In this document: positions 10,776 to 56,354 of the stretch, in pieces | How positions within the stretch are numbered: position 1 is the stretch's first letter | Layout of the letters: each line of letters opens with the position of its first letter | Source: Camelus ferus | Lineage: Eukaryota | Reading direction: 5' to 3' | Length of the DNA: 64,000 bases | NCBI RefSeq assembly: GCF_009834535.1 | Contig: NC_045696.1 | Coordinates: forward strand, 38,194,001-38,258,000 | Made by a program: the position numbers and the translations under genes | Notes under the pieces: model-generated | What the model saw: the letters and a program-made list of their open reading frames with translations, nothing else | The model's database searches: none | Told to the model about the DNA's origin: nothing

Positions 10776-11842
10776 GCCTGAAACACTATGATATTTGCTC
10801 TATAAACAAGTTATTTTTTACTACTGTGTAGTGGTTCACATAATTTCAAGTATTTCATTTTAGTGCTGTAGTGAAAAGAACTATAAATTTAAAGTGTGTG
10901 TACATTTTAATTTTTTCTACTATATTTCAGGCCATATCACATTAAGTATTCTAGATATAACTTGCTTGAGGCTGTGCTTTATAGGAAAATCAGTTCTAAT
11001 TTAAGTTCAAAATAATGGATAGCATCTTTGTGCTTAAGGAGGATATTTCTCTGAAAAACTCAAGCATGTTTTGCACTCAGCAGTCTCTCCCATTAACACA
11101 CATAGAGAAATTGATTGTATCTCCAGTTGATGGAGTATTTGACATAGTAGGAAAAATGAAGAAATAGACCAAATGCTTTTCACCTGTGTATTAATTTATT
11201 TCTACCACTTTATCTTTTTTATTCCATTTCTCCAAAGTAGGTAAGCGGCATAATTTACTGCACTTATTTTACTAATGGAATTTATATGGGCGATAAGTTA
11301 CTTGGCAAAGCTGATAAAACAAATAGTAACCACAGAGGAAAAAGAAATCAGGTCATAAGCCTGTTAGATCAGTGTACTTTCTAAATGGAAAGGAGAATTT
11401 CAGGCAACTCTTAGAATATTAAAAATGCAAAGATACTGAATTTAAATATTGTTCCTCTACATTAATGTTTTGAAAACTTTTTGAAGCACTGAAACTTTAT
11501 CACTTATAAATATTGGTAATCTATTTTAAAAGAATAGTGCCTCCTTTTTGCTCCCTCCTCTTCTGAGACAGCCCACACTCTGTCTATGGAGTGTGTACCT
11601 TTTACTCTAATCTGAGCACCCAGCCCCCACACCTCGTGACCTTTCTCTTGCCTTCTGAAACAGCCTACACTCTATGCAGTATGTATGTCTCTACATAAAT
11701 CTACTTTTACTCAACTGTGGCTTGCTCTTTCCTATGGAAAGCCAAGGACCCACACTTGATGGGACATGTCCCAGTGATTCAAAGGAGACCTGGGACACAG
11801 CCCTCCTCACGCCCCACACACGTTTTTCCTTCATCATCTCTC

Positions 11843-11860
11843 TGGTGCCCAACATAGGGT
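11843..11860 (+). promoter_or_regulatory. Retroviral primer-binding site, tRNA-Lys type (decayed)
   Basis: tggtgcccaacatagggt versus the Lys1,2 PBS TGGCGCCCAACGTGGGGC; the differences are transitions, two of them at CpGs. It lies just after the U5 end (...tcatca). Confidence 0.8.
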
Positions 11861-12303
11861 ATTTACATAAAGAAATGGGGCTCAAAGGGCATAACCTCGA
11901 TCAGCCTATTGGGCTTCGGCTCCCCTCTCTTCAGAGGGTAGCAGGGGGTTTCTCCCACACCATGGGATTCAAGTAGCCCTTAGGTGGTGGCTGAAGCTGC
12001 CTGCAGGATCTAGCAGAGACCAGCTCTCTATCCGTGAAGGAGCCCACCAAGCCCAAGGCTTTTCTCTCCTTGATCTTTTCTCATTCTTTCCTCTATCGCT
12101 CTGTCTCTTCGGACTCGAGAAGATCCACCAAGGCAACCACTCTGACATCCAAATTAAGACCATGTGGCAAGTAATTAACAGCCTGACTGGATGTTTAACC
12201 ATGACTTTTAAGTCTTTTTGTCATTATAGACTGTTAAACTGCTGTTACAAAGGAGCTTCATCTTTAAGAAGATTCATCAGAAGTCAGTGGAAACAGTGGG
12301 TTA

Positions 12304-12406
12304 CAAACAGTCCCGTATCAGATGATGGCTATGCAAGGATTCCAGCCCATACCACCCTTGGACTCAAAAACAAAAGGCTATCCTGCCCCTGGGGCCCCTA
12401 GATAGG
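12304..12406 (+). pseudogene. Remnant of ERV env cytoplasmic tail
   Basis: Reads QTVPYQMMAMQGFQPIPP..., then LGPLDR (12389-12406) in a shifted frame. This resembles class I ERV env tails (LQM...YQP, GPLDR) and lies just upstream of the PPT. Confidence 0.55.
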
Positions 12407-13449
12407 TATTCTGAGATTTTTACTCCCTGATAGGCAGGGTCAATGCCCCTACTCAGCCTGGAAGTAGTTTCAGAAGACAGACCTTTGCACCTCTGCAACC
12501 CCATAAGATTATGGGAATAAAATCTCTGAGGGGAAAGGAGACAGGAAGGAAGGAGACAGGGCATAGCCATTCGAGGAATAACACAACAATTAACACCAGG
12601 ATGGCAAAAGATTTAACCCCTGGTAGGCCTTAAGACTCAAGATGGTGGGAGATTTGACTTCTAGTAGACCTTGAGCTTCATTGGACACTCATTGTAATAT
12701 ATTAGCATGGTAAATAACATGCCCACAGATGCCATGACAGTCCCAAGGCTAGCCACGGAAAGTCAAAGGGTGGGAAATGGCTGACTTCCTGGTAATCCCA
12801 GCCCCTTCCTCAGGGTAGTTAGACTGGTCCTTTCACTTATTAGCATATGTAGCTACCAAGCCCATAAAAACTGGCAACATGGTGCCTCGTGTCCACCTTT
12901 TTGCTCCCTTCTCTTTGGAGATGGCCCACACTCTGACTGTGGAGTGTGTACCTACTTTTACTCTAATCTGAGCACCAAACCCCGACACCTCATGGCCTTC
13001 TGAAACAGACTACACTCTATGCAGTGTGTCTCTCTCTAAATAAATCTACCTTTACTCAAAAAATAAAATAAATAAAAGAATAGGGAATTATTTGGCAAAC
13101 ATAAGGAAGAATTCCTTTCCCTGTATCATACAGCTTTTTAAATTAGCATTTAATAGTTATGATCTTGAGTAATAGTCATTTTTACTCTTTATTTTGTTTA
13201 TATGTATTATTTTTAAATTTGTAATGCCCATTTCAGTGTGCTTTTGCCTGTTTATTTTACTAATTTGTCCATATATAGTTAAACTCATTAGGCACTGTAT
13301 AAGCAGTCTTGATTAATGAGTAATAATGACAACTTCAGTATCTAATGAGAGGCCATATAGTTTGAGTCTTCAGTCCCTGCTTCTCCTCCATGTGGGCTAC
13401 TTTTTATTTTCCTGCAGTTTGGATCTAGCAGCTATTGAGTCTTAGTGTC

Positions 13450-17998: not shown

Positions 17999-18096
17999 AT
18001 AATGCTACATGCAGATTTAAAGATTTTTGTTAGTGCTTCAAAGGCAGAAAAGAAGGAAACTAATCTAAAAAAATCTACCTGGGTATAAAAAGAAAA

Positions 18097-21000
18097 AGAC
18101 ATTTGATTTCACATATAAAGAGCTTATAAATCATCACTCGGTTCTAACAATAAGCAAAAACCTGAAAAGACTGAAAAATCAGCTCTTCTTGGGTCCATAA
18201 GATAGGGGAGGACATGGAGCAAAGTGCTTGCTTCCAAGATTAGAGAGACAGACAGGCAAATATAAGGAGTTACTGCTTCCCAGAGTAGAGACTTTTAAGC
18301 AGAAACAGCCACAGGAACCAGTGCCTGTTGCATCATGTCCAGCAATCAAGAAAAAAAATTGTAAGGTGTACCAGAAGGCAAAACCCACAATTTTAAGAGA
18401 CATATCAAACATCAGAACCAGATATGGCAGGGACGCTCGAATTATCAGATTGGGGATTTAAAACAGCTATAATTACTATGCTAAGGTCTCTAATGGATTA
18501 ATTAGACAGCAAGCAAGAGCAGATGGGCAATGTAAGTAGAGAGATGGAAATCTTGATAATGAAAATAAATGCATATGTATGTATGTGTGTATGCTTGTGT
18601 ATAATTGTAATGAATGACAGCAATGATACATGAGGTGGGAAGGAAGTAGGATTATTTTGTTACTATAAGGTACAGTACCTACAAAGCTGTATAGCATTAT
18701 TTGCAAGTAGACATGCATTAGTTGTAAATGTATATTGCAAACTCAAGAGCAACCACTAAAAAAAGGTGAAAAAAGAAGTATAACTGATATACTGGTAAGA
18801 CAGCGAAAATGGAATGATATAAAAGCTAGCTAAAACCACAAAAGGCAGAAAAAGAAAAAAAGAGAAAAAGAAAAAAATGAGAACAAAGAACAAGGGCAAC
18901 AAGTAGAAGACAGTAATGAATATTGTACCAGCTATACCATTAATCACTCTCAATGTCAATGATCTAAATGGGTGAAATAAAATGCAGAGATTGTTAGAGT
19001 CAATCAAAAAAACAAGGCCCAGTAATATGTTCTCTAAAAGAAACCCACTTTAAATATAAAGAAACATATGGATTAAATGTAAATAGATGGAGAAAAATAT
19101 ACCATCCTAACAGGAATCAAGAAAACACATGAGTAGCTATATTAATTTCAGACAACAGGCTTCACAGCAAGACAAGTTATTAGGGATAAAGAAGGACATT
19201 ACAAAATGATGAAAGGGTCGGTTTTCCAAGAGACATAGCAGTCTCCCATGTGTATGTGCCTAACAACAGAACATCAAACTTGTTTAGGCAGAGACTGATA
19301 GAACTGCCAGGAGTTCCATAGAATAGTTGATACACTACTATATTTGGAGACTTCAACCCCTCTATCAGAAACAGACATATCCAACAGGCAGAAAATCAAT
19401 AAGCACATAGTTGAACTCAATAAAACTATCAGTCAACTGGATATAATTTTCATCTATAGACTACTTCATCCAAGAATAGCATCCGATACACATTCTTCTC
19501 AAGCTCATATGGAACATTCACCAAGATATACATGACTGTTGAGCTTAAAAAAAAAAAAAACCAAAAACTTACCAAATTTAAAGGATAAAAATAATCCATT
19601 GTGTCAGCTAAGGACACAATGCAAATCAGTAGTAGAAAGATAACTGGAAAATACCAAAATACATGGATATAACCAACACACTAACTACCAAGACTGAATC
19701 ATGAAGAAATAGAAACTCTAAACTGACCAGTCCTACTAAGAAGATTAAATCAGTAATCAACATTCCACCACTCCATCCCACAGAAAAGTCCAGGGCCAGA
19801 TGGCTTCACTTAATGAATTCTACCAAACATTTGAAGAATGATAGTACTAATCCTTCTCAAATCCTTCTGAAAAATAAGAGGAGAGAACACTTCCTAATTC
19901 TTTTTATGAGGCCAGCATTACCCTGATACCAAAATTAGACTAGGATACTACAAGAAAAGAAAATTACAGGCCAATATCTTTGATGAGCATAGATGCAAAA
20001 ATCCTCAACAAAGTATTAGCAAACCAAATTCAGCAGTGTATTAAAAGGATCGTACACCATGATCAAGTGGTCGTTACTCCAGGGGTGTAAGAATGGTTCA
20101 ACATTTGGAAATCAGTCAGTGTGATACATCACATTAACAGATGAAAGATAAAAATCATATTATTTCAATAGATGCAGAAAAAGTTTTTGACAGAATTCAA
20201 CCATTCATGATGAAAAGACTGGGGGTAGAGGGAATGTACCTCAGCATAGTAAAGACCATGTTAACAAGCTCATAGCTAACATCATACTCAATGGAGAGAA
20301 GCTGAAAGCCTTTCCTCTGAGATCAGAAACAAGACAAGGATGCCCACTCTTGCCGCTTTTACTCAACATAGTACTGAAATTCTAGGCCAGAGCAATTAGC
20401 AAGAAAAAGAAAGCAAAGACATCCAAATCAGAATGGGAGAAGTAAAATTATCTTTATTTACAGATAACATGATATTATATATAGAAAACCCTAAAGACCA
20501 CCAAAAAACTACTAGAACTAATAATTAATTCAGTAAAGTTGCAGGATACAAAATCAATATATAAAAACCAGCTTCATTTCTATGAAATAACATCAAACCA
20601 TCAGAAACAGAAATTAAGAAAACAATCTAATTTACAATTGCATCAAAAAGAATAAAATACCTAAGAATAAATGTAACCAAGGAGGTTAAAGATCTGTACA
20701 CTGAACACTGTAAGACACTGATGTATGAAATTGAAGAAGATACAAATAAATGGAAGGATATTCCATGCTTATGGATTTGAAAAATTAATATTGTTAAAAT
20801 GTCCATACTACCCAAAGCAATCTACAGGTTCTGTGTAATCCCTATGAAAATTCCAATGACATTTTTCGCAGAAATAGAAAAAAAATCCTAAAATTTCTGT
20901 GGAACCACAAAAGACCCTGAATAGCCAAAGCAATCTTGAGAAAAAAGACATGTCCAGAGGCATCACACTTCTTGATTTCAAATTATATTAAAATAAGACC

Positions 21001-22190
21001 TGTAACAAAACTTCTAGACGATAACATAAGGGAAGAGAACCCTGATGTCAGTATTGGCAGTAGTTTGTTTTTGATTTGACACCAAAAGCAAAGGCAACAA
21101 AGGCACAAACAAGTAAGACTACATAAAACTAAAAATCTGCCCAGCAAAGGAAACTATCAACCAGATGGAAAGGCAACCTATGGAATGGGAGAAAATATTT
21201 GTAAATATATCTAATATGGGTTAATATCAAAAATAGAAAACTCACATAACTCAATAGCAAAAAAACCCAACAAAACACAAAAACTAACTGAAAAACAAGC
21301 AGAAGAACTGAATAGACATTTTCTGAAGAAGATGTGGAAATGACCAATAATGAAGAGGTACTCTATATCACTAATTATCAAGGTATTGTAAATCAAAAAC
21401 GCAATGAACTGTCAGATCATACTTGTTAGAATGGCTATCATCAAAAAGATGAGATAACAAATGTTGACAAGGATGTGGGTAAAAGGGGACTCTTATACAC
21501 TATTGGTAGGAATGCACATTGGGGCAGCCATAGCCACCAATCACATTCTGGAGATTCCTCAAAAAACTGAAAATAAAACTTTTGTATGATCCATCATTCT
21601 CACTTCTTTTCTTTCATCCTGAAAGAAATGCTCCCTGTTCATTTCAGCATTATTTACAATAGCAAGATATGGAAACAATGCTAGTGTCCATCACTGATGA
21701 ATAGATAAAGAAGATGTGGTGTATATATACATAATGGAATATTATTTAGCCACGAGAAAGAAGGAAATCCTGCCACTTATGACAACATGGATGGATCTTG
21801 TGGGCATGATGTTAAGTGAAATAAACCAGACAGAGAAAGACAAATACTTCATGGTATCACTTATATGTGGAATCTAAATAAAAGCCAAACTTGAACAGAG
21901 TGAAGAAAAATGGTTGCTGGAGGCGGAAAGGTGGAGGAAATATAAACATTTAGCTATAACATGAATTATGCCTAAGTTTCTGATGTATAACATAGTGACT
22001 GTAGTAGATGACAGTGAATTGTGTAATTGAAGTTTGCTAAGAGAGTAGAACTTAGATATCATCACAAAAATATGTGAAGTTGTACATGTACATCAAATCA
22101 TTATGGCGTACATTTTAAATTACTTATAGTTTCGTCTATTACACCCCAATAAAGCTGAGAGGTAAATAAAACTAAAGAGAAAAAAAAGGA
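18097..22190 (+). mobile_element. Degenerate composite LINE-1: old L1M 5'UTR/ORF1/endonuclease pieces (~18097-19680) joined to an L1MA-like RT-to-3' end (~19680-22190)
   Basis: EN remnants (ITLNVN at ~18941; GDFNTPLS-like at ~19345). RT remnants (ccagatggcttcact, gaggccagcattaccctgatacc, agacaaggatgcccactct, tttacagataacatgat). caataaagctg plus A-rich tail at ~22147-22190. Confidence 0.88.
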
Positions 22191-53500: not shown

Positions 53501-54110
53501 AATTATCCATTTTTGGCCATTTGGAAGCCTGTGCCAGTTGGCTCCTGAATCCTTTTGACATGACACTGGTAAACATTGATATCTTCCCTGATTTCTGGTA
53601 TTAAATTTATAAAACACCACCAATGAAATAATCTTACAAAAAATAAAAATAAGCGGAACCTAGATCTATCTGGTCAAGCCACTGAATATATCTACCAATT
53701 TAAAGAAAATACAGGGAATGGAGGAATACGTTCAGTGATATCTCATGGTAAGGAAAATCTAGAATGTGGGATAAAACAACTTTTATGGGACAAATATTTC
53801 TTATCAAATTTGATTTCATGTAGTGAAAAAGATGACTGGCTCTTCATTAGGAAACAAATTAAAATAACTATGAGATACTATTGCACACCTGTTACAATGT
53901 CTTAAAAAAAAAAAAGCTGGACAGTACCAAGTACTGGTGAGGATGTGGAGCAACTGGAAAGCCGTACATTCTGCTAAAGGAAATGTAAAACTTCATAGCC
54001 ATTTTGAAATACAGTTTGACTTTTTCTTAAAACATAAGCCTTCTTTGTATAACCCAGTAATCATTATTTACCATGCAGAAATGAAAACATAGGTTCATAT
54101 AAAAATTTAT

Positions 54111-55460
54111 GAGAGAAGCAAGATGGCGGATTAGAAGGACACTTGTAGCTCACCCTCTCCCACAAATACACCAAAACTCACATCTACGGACCTACTCAAC
54201 CAACCAGAGCACCTGCCAAACTCCGACAGAACATCGCCCTCTTTGAAAGACAAAGACGCCAAATATCTGGTAGGAGAAAAGGGAAAAAGAAAGAAGAAAA
54301 AGCAAAACGGTGCGGGACCGGTCCCTGTGGGGAGAGAGCAGCAGAGGAGGACTGGAGCTCATTCACTGGGTCTCCCCCCTCCAATGGAGAGGCCAGTGGG
54401 ACAGAGGGGGAGCCTCTGAGGCTCAGATCTGCCCCGAGCACCCCTTGACCGACAGAACTGAGTTAAATGGGCACAAAGGGTCCCCGTGACACCCAGCGCA
54501 AGACTCGAGCCAGCAGCTGGGGGCTGGGCCAGGCTGCCTGAGCTAGGCGGAGGACTAGGGGGGCTGTACTGAGGCAGCCCCGGGGGACTGCAAGGTGCTG
54601 CACGCCGTGGCTGGGAGGGGATACGGACTGGAACAACCTTGGTCCCCCATAAATTGCAAAAAAAGCAAAGAAACATGGCTGGTGTGCCCTGTGGGGAGGG
54701 GTGCCATAGCCTTTGTCTCCTCAGGCCTGCGCCGCCATTACTGGCTCTTCTCCTGAGAAGAGAGGCGGGGCGCAGCCACAGCTGCCATCTCCTCCAGTGC
54801 GCAGCGCCCAGGCGGGGGCAGGGCCGAGACCTGAACCCGAACCCTGAGGCTCTGGAACCTCCTAGTCAGGACTGAGACTTGTTTACAGCCTGAGGCAGAT
54901 AGGATCTTTCTGCCCTGGTACCTCAGAGAACTTGTGCTGCCAAGACAAACAAGGAGCTGAGAGTTGGCATGAAGCAGGGGCGGGGCCGTTCTGTGGTCTT
55001 CCCTGAGCCCGCCTTTGGAGCGCTGACTGGAGGCAGAGCAGGCAGCTGCACAGAGCAGCGGAACTACGGGCTCCAGGAGAGGGCGGGTAGACACCCGCCT
55101 TGTGGCAGGAACGCAGCACCTGACCACCGTGCTGGGAAGGGGCAGGATCCGCCCACCTGCCTCCCCACCCCCCCAGAGTGCAGCATCTGACTGCAGCAGT
55201 AGGAGGGGGAGTGACCCGCCTGCCCACCGGGTAAGAGCTCAGCTCCAGACCCAGTATTAGGAGGGGGCGTGACTTGCTAGCCAATAGCCACTGGGAGCAG
55301 CACAGACGAGGGCGCCAACAGAGGGCCTCTGGAAACAGCAAGCTGAGTTCGTGAAACAGGGCAAAGACACAAAGACCTCTCAATAAGAGCGTTAAGGGCA
55401 CACCATCTCCAGGAGAACTAGATAACTGATAAGCCACAGTGCCAGAGAGATATAAGCAAT
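54111..55460 (+). promoter_or_regulatory. L1 5'UTR internal promoter (only CpG-rich segment in the window), with YY1-type motif
   Basis: AAGATGGCG lies about 10 nt from the 5' end, as in mammalian L1 promoters. GC and CpG content are high relative to the flanks. Confidence 0.75.
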
Positions 55461-56354
55461 ATGAAGAAGCAGAGGAACCACTCCCAATTAAAAGATCAAG
55501 AGAAATCCCCTGAAAGCACAATCAAGGAAATAGACATTGATGGCCTACTAGATCAAGATTTCAAAAGACTGATCAAAGTACTGAAGGAACTAAAAGAGAT
55601 AATGTTTAGAGATATAAAATATGTCAAAAATGAAATAGAAGCTATAAAGAAGAACCAAGTAAAATTAGTAAACTCATTTGCTGAGATGAGAGCTGACCTA
55701 AAAGCTGTGCAGAGCAGACTAGATAATGCAGAGGAACGAATAAGTGACCTAGAAGACAGGACAACAGAGAGCACCCAATCAGAACAACAATGAAAAACAA
55801 ATGAAAAACAATGAAAACAATGTAAGGGACCTATGGGATAATAAAAAGCATGCCAATCTACACATAATAGGGGTTCCAGAATGAGAAGAAAGAACAAAGG
55901 GGATTGAAAAGGTATTGGAAGAAATTATGACTGAAAAGTTCCCAAACCTAAAGAAGGAATCAGATATACAAGTACAGGAGGCTCAGAGGGTCCCAAACAG
56001 GAAGAACCCAAACAGACCCACACCAAGACATATCATAATCAAGATGGCCAGAGTCAAGGATAAAGAAATGATCCTAAAGGCAGAAAGGGAAAAACAAAGA
56101 GTGAGTTACAAGGGACCCCCCCCCCCCCATAAGGCTCTCAGCTGTTTTCTCTACAAATACTACAGGCCAGAAGGGACTGACAAGATAAATTCAAAGTCCT
56201 GAATGAAAAAAAGATGCAGCTTAGGATACTCTATCCAGCAAGGCTATCCTTTAAAATAGAAGGAGAGATAAAGAACTTCACAGATAAGCAAAAAGAATAA
56301 GAGTTTAGCAACACTAAACCCATGCTAAAAGAAATATTAACAGGTCTACTCTAA
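55461..56354 (+). pseudogene. L1 ORF1p, disrupted by stops and frameshifts
   Basis: MKKQRNHSQLKDQEK...RLDNAEERISDLED (coiled coil), then EEIMTEKFPNL..IQVQEAQRVPNRKNPNRPTPRHIIIKM (RRM region). Stop at 55791-55793, poly-C slip near 56116, terminal TAA at 56352-56354. Confidence 0.92.

Follow-up and report, generated by a model that had tools for sequence, protein, structure and literature searches.

A probable processed pseudogene of a spliced endogenous retroviral RNA in Camelus ferus

Results

The window analysed here, a 64,000-nt stretch of the Camelus ferus contig NC_045696.1 (forward-strand positions 38,194,001 to 38,258,000), contains an element at 11538-13058 that is laid out as R-U5-leader, exon 2, U3-R-(A)n, without complete U3-R-U5 LTRs (TG...CA) or a 4-6 bp duplication. 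The positions of its parts, together with the acceptors used by the spliced members of its family, are given in Table 1. Direct repeats at 11540-11714 and 12893-13059 align in three pieces with 87-91% identity, and over the whole of R the 5' and 3' copies are 82% identical across 177 nt. By comparison with the family, the internal sequence between the end of U5 (11836) and the start of U3 (12537) measures 700 bp, close to the ~680 bp claimed in an earlier reading of the letters alone (hereafter the sequence-only reading).

Table 1. Parts of the copy in the window and acceptors of the spliced copies
Feature	Position	Strand	Remarks
5' target-site duplication	11527..11537	+	TAAAAGAATAG; tttt/aaaag site
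5' R	11538..11713	+	copy starts at the predicted transcription start, without upstream U3
U5	11714..11836	+	terminates ...catca, like true LTRs of the family
Primer-binding site, tRNA-Lys1,2 type	11843..11860	+	14/18 matches; CpG decay
Leader (remainder of exon 1)	11861..12190	+	3' end ...ctgactgg at the putative splice donor
Putative exon-exon junction	12190..12191	+	~4.1 kb absent relative to unspliced relatives
Exon 2 to 3' LTR, acceptor 1 form	12191..12536	+	short purine run gaggggaaag abuts the LTR
U3 of 3' LTR	12537..12883	+	family LTR start TGAGACAGG; first T>G in the window copy
TATA-like box cataaaaa	12863..12870	+
3' R	12884..13058	+	start ambiguous, 12884 or 12890
Polyadenylation signal AATAAA	13039..13044	+	copy terminates 14 nt downstream
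Decayed A-tail	13059..13072	+	aaaaataaaataaa; 14 nt long; replaces U5
3' target-site duplication	13073..13083	+	TAAAAGAATAG
Acceptor 1			users: window copy, L002
Acceptor 2	+22 nt		users: L003, L069, L071
Acceptor 3	+38 nt		users: L004, L005, L070

The sequence-only reading had taken the element for an ERV RNA inserted by LINE-type target-primed reverse transcription, on the grounds that it lacks a 5' U3 and a 3' U5, starts at R near the predicted transcription start, ends ~14 nt past AATAAA (13039) in an A-tail, and is flanked by a 10-11 bp target-site duplication; all four structural claims were confirmed. No U3 was found upstream of the 5' R, where the alignment score was 28 (maximum 180), compared with 44-140 for true 5' LTRs. 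At the 3' end the window copy terminates in ...actca (13058) and then runs into the A-tail, and the 5' copy continues after the same actca into U5 (actgtggc..., from 11714). The element's 5' end aligns to position 12884 or 12890 of the 3' copy, 20 or 26 nt past the first A of the TATA-like box, an ambiguity caused by one small indel in the alignment; relatives that keep U3 have a common start, GGCC, 27-28 nt past the first A of the box. The 11-mer TAAAAGAATAG is an exact match on both flanks and abuts both ends of the element. Its three occurrences in the 64-kb window compare with an expectation of 0.23, and none of 100 shuffles reached that number.

Rfam gave zero matches within the window, and Pfam returned nothing relevant for the window's 14 longest reading frames. 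A stop-free frame of 168 aa spanning the junction (11895-12401) was considered; it matches no Pfam family and is absent from the other seven spliced copies, whose longest frames across the junction are only 25-119 aa, and it is therefore treated as a chance frame.

Unspliced relatives in the same genome carry ~4.1 kb between the equivalents of window positions 12190 and 12191 (query positions 653/654), a stretch bounded by GTGAG...AG that contains gag, a zinc knuckle and the start of a protease. One of them, L036, is an entire 6.2-kb R-to-R unspliced copy, and other examples are L032+L008, L033+L012 and L035+L018. GTGAG follows the donor in 13/15 unspliced copies, with ATGAG and GCGAG in the remaining two, AG stands directly before exon 2 in most copies, and in unspliced copies AG precedes each of the three acceptors. 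All eight spliced copies found, including that of the window, use the same single donor with three alternative acceptors; L002 is imperfect, its junction being one base short and its 5' end having 5 additional bases, and the junctions of L004 and L070 are blurred by later mutation. Short junction queries retrieved no ninth spliced copy (candidates scored 27/27, 40/41 and 16/16). From these alignments we infer that the junction in the window copy was made by splicing, not deletion, and the shortness of the element would thus be due to removal of the 4.1-kb intron.

The same exon 1 and the same donor are present in L048, where they are fused at exon boundaries to three exons of BTBD9, which in the parent gene on C20 are separated by 24 and 52 kb. 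The chimera ends with poly(A) and a ~15 bp duplication. Among the best 40 scored matches, no family member that might be its source provirus lies near the C20 BTBD9 exons.

Across the family, R starts without U3 at 17/25 distinct 5' ends, although 16/24 is the fairer count because a single locus is represented twice, as L049 and L066. Where R is preceded by U3 (50 ends), it passes directly into an A-tail in 27 cases, into U5 in 21, and into other sequence in 2. Duplications of 9-17 bp, mostly A-rich at their start and following T's, flank 11/16 processed copies, and 5/16 are without a clear duplication. Elements for which both ends were seen combine either an R start with a poly(A) end (n=10) or a U3 start with a U5 end (n=3), and none of them mixes the two. 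The R start and poly(A) site are found again in many independent copies, which each have a duplication of their own. Complete LTRs (TG...CA) together with a 4-6 bp duplication are found in relatives, e.g., L031+L030, L050+L025 and L063, and the single provirus comparable at both ends has flanks of merely ATAC/ATAT. The processed type represents about two-thirds of family ends in the sample, a rough figure because the sample is non-random, consisting of the 40 copies that scored best in each search, the queries having been derived from processed copies. Such repeated finding of R starts together with poly(A) ends and long duplications is what LINE-type retrocopying of ERV RNA would leave and bears out the expectation of the sequence-only reading that other such copies exist; the insertion signature points to L1 as the probable inserting enzyme. 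Direct descent of the processed copy L032+L008 from the provirus L031+L030, which lies 1.5 Mb from it, was considered and dropped because their identity is mosaic, being 89%, 96% and 98% in different parts.

Gag_p30 was detected above the Pfam cut-off in the unspliced copies L036 and L032 (E 9e-12 and 7e-11) and is absent from the window copy. Also encoded in the intron are zf-CCHC (E 5e-7) and, at E 8e-4, the start of RVP; a survey of 104 reading frames from 5 copies turned up no RT domain. Among named Gag relatives the nearest, at 76% identity, is one annotated in Camelus dromedarius, and the Gag fragment gave no match to longer proteins. Assignment of the primer-binding site to the Arg type proved wrong; the published tRNA-Lys1,2 18-mer (PMC8775094) fits, with 16/18 matches in L069. 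The domain content suggests that the parent is a gamma-like (class I) ERV that has gag and the start of protease, with no room for pol and env.

Phylogenetic trees were used to count the origins of the spliced form. The 6 spliced rows of the exon-1 tree require 6 changes, and the 7 spliced rows of the 3' tree, where only the spliced label of each row was used, require 7 changes, at least 4 of them demanded by the strongly supported branches by themselves. Both main clades (support 100/99) contain every acceptor type, and the spliced copies fail to group together on either tree. Over 150 nt on each side of the junction, the closest relatives of spliced copies are unspliced (90-92% versus 86-89%). 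Poly(A) is present in 8/8 short copies and an R start in 6/6 full-length spliced copies; two spliced copies and several unspliced copies are truncated at the 5' end. The three acceptors and the scatter over the family tree therefore favour repeated retrocopying over a self-propagating SINE-like lineage, and the spliced copies would represent repeated, independent retrocopies of alternatively spliced RNAs from at least four lineages of the family. The amplified unit is the whole 5-6 kb ERV group, with spliced RNAs only occasional templates.

Discussion

We put at roughly 90% the probability that window positions 11538-13058 are a processed pseudogene (retrocopy) of a spliced RNA from a gamma-like ERV with gag and no room for pol and env. 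A provirus would have been transcribed from its LTR promoter, with the RNA starting at R, ~27 nt past the TATA-like box, and would have been cleaved and polyadenylated in the 3' R, 14 nt past AATAAA. Splicing from the leader donor (...ctgactgg/GTGAG) to an acceptor ~350 nt before the 3' LTR (...attacAG/ATGTTTAAC) would have removed ~4.1 kb comprising gag and the start of protease. A LINE-1-type endonuclease/reverse transcriptase would then have nicked the tttt/aaaag site, used the poly(A) for priming and reverse-transcribed the RNA as far as its 5' end, giving R-U5-leader/exon 2-U3-R-(A)n flanked by 11-bp duplications. In gammaretroviruses, as established for MLV, the packaging signal lies downstream of the splice donor, and LINE-type retrocopying would thus be the only route by which the spliced RNAs could spread. 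Lacking both an upstream promoter and a conserved reading frame, the window copy was dead on arrival and is an old, inert, non-coding insertion.

The sequence-only reading had gone further and suggested that the element may belong to a miniature, non-autonomous, SINE-like family spread by L1. In an SVA-like form of this proposal, L1 would amplify the transcripts of a miniature ERV-derived master copy. Eight copies do have a common R-U5-leader/exon 2-U3-R-(A)n layout with duplications, and L1 is known to amplify composite non-coding RNAs such as SVA (part of the account in PMC3287187). We nevertheless judge this proposal very unlikely: the small size is due to the spliced-out 4.1 kb, the eight copies use three different acceptors, and their rows never cluster (6 changes for 6 rows, 7 for 7, at least 4 origins forced). 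Each acceptor type is divided between the two main clades, and the spliced copies are nearest to unspliced ones. Copies that start at R would also have no upstream promoter, their sole U3 being at the 3' end, and the short junction queries failed to enlarge the group.

Internally deleted ERV variants are common, and the splice is read from DNA only, so the short form might instead have arisen when a provirus suffered a deletion, at the DNA level or by template switching, and its transcripts were then retrocopied. This is highly improbable given that the missing stretch begins with GTGAG in 13/15 unspliced copies and ends in AG, and that one common start point is paired with three alternative end points, each right after AG. 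L048 joins the same start point to BTBD9 exon boundaries, and none of the eight short copies, with their uniform poly(A) ends and, in all six full-length ones, R starts, is a deleted provirus that has complete LTRs. A mini-provirus made by integrase whose 5' U3 and 3' U5 were deleted later, the case that the sequence-only reading had held against itself, accounts for the presence of LTR-derived sequence and nothing further, and we assign it a negligible probability. The ends of the element correspond to a transcription start and a poly(A) site, an A-tail occupies the place of U5, and an exact 11-bp duplication abuts both ends; later loss is ruled out by independent copies that have these two end points again, between duplications that differ from copy to copy, and the one provirus compared at both ends has only the ATAC/ATAT flanks.

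The processed pseudogenes of HERV-W resemble the camel copies in their R-U5 start, U3-R end, poly(A) and duplication of about 5-15 nt at a TT/AAAA-like site, and they make up 135 of 213 HERV-W loci, comparable to the roughly two-thirds of sampled ends in the camel family. The hosts differ, catarrhine primates for HERV-W and another mammal for the present family, as do the primer-binding sites, Lys1,2 type in the camel family and Arg type in ERV-W-like elements according to a passage of PMC6995185. By its primer-binding site the camel family is probably not ERV-W, and its likeness to HERV-W is one of structure. The reduced coding content of the camel parent, with gag, the start of protease and no room for pol/env, is counted as a further difference.

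Spliced retrocopies of human HERV-H, HERV-K (HML-2) and HERV-W are already in print, and the window copy is a clean example in another mammal; spliced HERV-H was reportedly described by Goodchild in 1995, a work cited in PMC3590776. A section of PMC6995185 treats HERV-W pseudogenes lacking pre-gag as retrocopies of spliced RNA, with GT/AG kept in unspliced members, and an excerpt of PMC3590776 describes the rec-like HML-2 locus 2q32.1 as intronless, with poly(A), an L1-type duplication, and GT/AG in unspliced members. All of these ERV copies share with the camel ones the lack of introns, the poly(A) and the L1-type duplications; the camel family differs in that its intron removes essentially the whole coding part, and in that three alternative acceptors are represented as DNA copies from at least four lineages. 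In the artiodactyl Hippotraginae, the spliced ERV-derived mRNA of ARTenvV was retrocopied by LINE-1 with a 14-bp duplication at a TTAAAA site, as stated in a portion of PMC9604959. ARTenvV is a single co-opted, protein-coding env copy, whereas the camel copies are non-coding and recurrent. SVA is similar in that L1 mobilises in trans a non-coding RNA with ERV-derived sequence and leaves poly(A) and duplications, but SVA lineages descend from master copies, whereas the camel spliced copies do not and only 8 were found.

HERV-W is the only group of HERVs that L1 specifically mobilises, and the determinants that limit this are unknown, according to a review (PMC5537654); New World monkey ERV-W-like elements are without such copies, for reasons left unexplained in the relevant passage of PMC6995185. 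We tentatively suggest, at slightly less than even odds, that the present family is an independent non-primate counterpart of HERV-W, that is, an ERV group, probably camelid, that spread mainly via LINE-1, with alternatively spliced RNAs and a host-gene chimera captured, and that it may be undescribed in print as an L1-mobilised group. If so, a second, unrelated group behaving like HERV-W would provide a basis for comparison, which could reveal the RNA features that make an ERV transcript a good L1 template. The retrocopies also constitute a DNA record of old transcript structure, with a single start, a single poly(A) site and a single donor alongside three acceptors. A 1.5-kb R...R copy with 175-nt terminal repeats could pass for a short LTR element in paired-repeat searches.

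Structure of the window element

The window corresponds to C1:38194001-38258000 of the 2.09-Gb Camelus ferus assembly. The terminal repeats of the 1.5-kb element are 87-91% identical in three pieces and 82% identical across 177 nt. The first repeat extends into further sequence, and the second stops 14 nt past AATAAA (13039-13044), after which comes aaaaataaaataaa. An exact 11-mer, TAAAAGAATAG, adjoins both ends of the element; the window holds three occurrences (0.23 expected), a count reached in 0 of 100 shuffles. The sequence-only reading had described the ends, the AATAAA, the A-tail and the duplication, and was correct at every point checked, with the repeats, tail and 11-mer all confirmed. 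The U3 start was placed using the true 5′ LTRs of the family (L043, L045, L047, L050, and L063), because these start with TGAGACAGG. The primer-binding site of L069, another spliced copy, matches 16 of the 18 positions of the published tRNA-Lys1,2 18-mer (PMC8775094). A 168-aa stop-free frame (window 11895-12401) crosses the splice junction; it matches no family, and the other spliced copies do not conserve it.

Features of the window element and of a chimeric relative
Feature	Location	Strand	Structure or basis
1.5-kb element, direct repeat at each end	window 11527-13083
LTR end ...catca	window 11836		family LTRs
Primer-binding site	window 11843-11860		14/18 match to the published tRNA-Lys1,2 18-mer
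U3 start	window 12537		after a short purine run; true 5′ LTRs of the family
L048, chimeric retrocopy	C17:11830901-11834051	minus	R-U5-leader spliced to three BTBD9 3′ exons, 3′ UTR and poly(A)

One donor joined to three acceptors

When the host genome was searched with the window element, 47 matches were scored of 4687 first-look candidates. Among these 47, L002, L003, and L004 are collinear with the element along its entire 1.5 kb (77-79% identity); they start within a few bases of a common point and share the ...actca end with its A-tail, and each has a flanking duplication of its own. Many other scored matches begin only at position 653 of the query, then reach poly(A) or carry on into U5. 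Since these copies share a different upstream sequence, ending in ...attacag, query 653/654 (window 12190/12191) is a junction and not an LTR boundary.

In sequence of up to 10 kb fetched around several copies, approximately 4.1 kb separates the two halves of the window element in unspliced relatives. L036 is a complete 6.2-kb copy with an R start, a poly(A) end and a 9-bp duplication, L032+L008, L033+L012, and L035+L018 are built in the same way, and L031+L030, which opens with U3 and closes with U5, is a provirus. GTGAG follows ...ctga(c/t)tgg in 13 of 15 unspliced copies (ATGAG and GCGAG in the other two), and in most copies the sequence preceding ATGTTTAAC ends in AG. The window junction, ...ctgactgg/atgtttaac, is the exact join of this donor and acceptor. 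In L003, L069, and L071 the common donor is joined 22 nt further on, after ...ttttaag, and in L004, L005, and L070 it is joined 38 nt further on, after ...attacag. The use of a single donor with three AG acceptors points to alternative splicing, and on sequence grounds we read the junction of the window element as a splice. If the short form had been made by deletion instead, this arrangement would be hard to obtain, with one start point and three end points each lying after an AG. Junction probes of 300 nt and 80 nt found eight spliced copies in all in the host genome, and the 80-nt searches, in which nearly all candidates were scored (27/27, 40/41, and 16/16), gave no ninth. Six of the eight are full length; L005 is 5′-truncated at query 429 and L070 at query 484.

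Insertion mode and parent retrovirus

Seventeen of 25 distinct 5′ ends lack upstream U3 and begin at R, and the other eight have U3. L049 (C8:4.88 Mb) and L066 (C1:95.18 Mb) share 86% identity across their full 3.1 kb, which takes in 1 kb or more of flanking sequence upstream of the ERV copy; as an old segmental duplication they are counted as one insertion, making 16/24 the fairer figure. Most of the 17 R starts, read by eye from the sequences, open with (G)GCC, GGCT, or TGCC, and in U3-bearing copies this point lies 27-28 nt past the first A of an ATAAAAA box. U3 precedes 50 of 70 distinct R ends; 27 of the 50 go directly to an A-rich tail, 13 to U5 without a primer-binding site (3′ or solo LTRs), eight to U5 plus a primer-binding site (proviral 5′ LTRs), and two to something else. 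Where both ends were seen, ten elements combine an R start with poly(A), three a U3 start with U5, and none is mixed. Target-site duplications of 9-17 bp, mostly opening with A's after T's, flank 11 of 16 processed copies, with no clear one in the other five; the one provirus with two comparable ends has only ATAC/ATAT flanking it. The mechanism proposed earlier, L1-type retrotransposition of ERV RNA, was right, as R-U5 and U3-R ends, poly(A), and long duplications recur across copies; from these hallmarks we infer that the enzyme was L1.

A Pfam search of open intron frames from five copies (20 from L036; 84 from L031, L032, L033, and L035) identified Gag_p30 (E 9e-12 and 7e-11), a zinc knuckle (E 5e-7), and the first third only of a retroviral protease (E 8e-4, just short of Pfam's cut-off), and no reverse transcriptase, integrase, or envelope. 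With approximately 4.8 kb between the LTRs, pol and env do not fit. Size and Pfam matches suggest a gamma-like, gag-bearing, non-autonomous ERV as the parent. Among named proteins, the Gag fragment is closest to 'Gag polyprotein [Camelus dromedarius]' (76% identity).

The provirus L031+L030 (C37:88.60-88.61 Mb) and the processed copy L032+L008 (C37:90.15-90.16 Mb) lie 1.5 Mb apart on one contig and are unusually close but mosaic, with 96% identity over 3.4 kb and 89% over 1.6 kb; the 5′ R-U5 of the processed copy is 98% identical to the 3′ LTR of the provirus. More family copies lie nearby, e.g., C37:88623412. In L055 (C11:8250332-8253494), which may be a rearranged copy, a U3 stretch is directly joined to the last 160 nt of leader plus donor.

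Recurrent retrocopies

The sequence-only reading had also proposed a miniature, SINE-like family, and this does not fit the spliced copies, which use three acceptors, are scattered on both trees, and are nearer to unspliced copies. In the exon-1 tree (25 rows), six spliced rows give six label changes (shuffled mean 5.5). In the 3′ tree (39 rows, L069 and L036 being lost to a filter), seven spliced rows give seven label changes, at least four of which are forced by well supported branches alone, and every acceptor type is present in both main clades (support 100/99). Over 150 nt on each side of the junction, identity is 90-92% between spliced and unspliced copies versus 86-89% among spliced copies. 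Given the tree scatter and the closer identity to unspliced copies, the spliced copies are independent retrocopies from different sources and not offspring of a miniature master copy. A better description is that alternatively spliced RNAs of one ERV group were retrocopied recurrently. The end-branch lengths (median 0.08; window copy 0.11) indicate that the events are old.

The chimeric retrocopy L048 has the family's common R start, the same exon 1, and the same donor, and can be taken as an independent witness for donor use. Beyond the donor lies an open frame that encodes an F5/8 type C domain (E 1.7e-8) and shares 94-95% identity with mammalian BTBD9; the matching parent exons are at C20:25.67-25.75 Mb, spaced 24 and 52 kb. 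An A-tail closes the copy, which is flanked by a duplication of approximately 15 bp with one mismatch. This anatomy indicates that an LTR-driven, donor-spliced ERV-BTBD9 chimeric mRNA was also retrocopied; its source provirus was not found, as none of the 40 scored family hits lies near the BTBD9 exons on C20. A second copy of a BTBD9 exon (C20:40341044-40341235; 95% identical, opposite strand) lies 14.6 Mb away from the gene and could reflect exon duplication or an artefact of assembly. L042 (C37:61088670-61091816) is a retrocopy of exon 1 only, ending at the donor with approximately 25 A-rich nt and a 15-bp duplication; premature polyadenylation or a very small last exon may explain it.

Comparison with known systems

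HERV-W, with 135 processed pseudogenes among 213 loci, has been described as the only HERV group that L1 specifically mobilises, and its pseudogenes are marked by R-U5 and U3-R ends, poly(A), and duplications of 5-15 nt at a TT/AAAA site (PMC5537654). All three hallmarks are found in copies of the window element's family; like HERV-W, this ERV group appears to have spread largely via LINE-1. Retrocopies of spliced ERV RNAs are already in print: HERV-W pseudogenes lack a pre-gag intron whose GT/AG is conserved in proviruses (PMC6995185), HML-2 has a rec-like spliced retrocopy at 2q32.1 (PMC3590776, which also cites spliced HERV-H copies), and spliced ARTenvV mRNA was retrocopied in antelopes (PMC9604959). 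Our literature searches, covering main texts, found no account of L1 mobilising an ERV group in hosts other than primates. A camel transposon survey reports that short ERV1 elements lacking ORFs form clusters in alpaca; its main text has zero occurrences of 'L1-mediated' and no mention of an L1-mobilised ERV (PMC8605555).

Elsewhere in the window, positions 54001-56000 form a G+C-rich island (0.51 versus approximately 0.33 around it) with a strong AT skew of 0.32. Several stop-free frames, 120-210 aa long, overlap there on both strands, and Pfam gave only sub-threshold coiled-coil matches for them. Positions 18001-22000 show an A-rich strand bias, with an AT skew of 0.25-0.28 across 4 kb, like a LINE sense strand.
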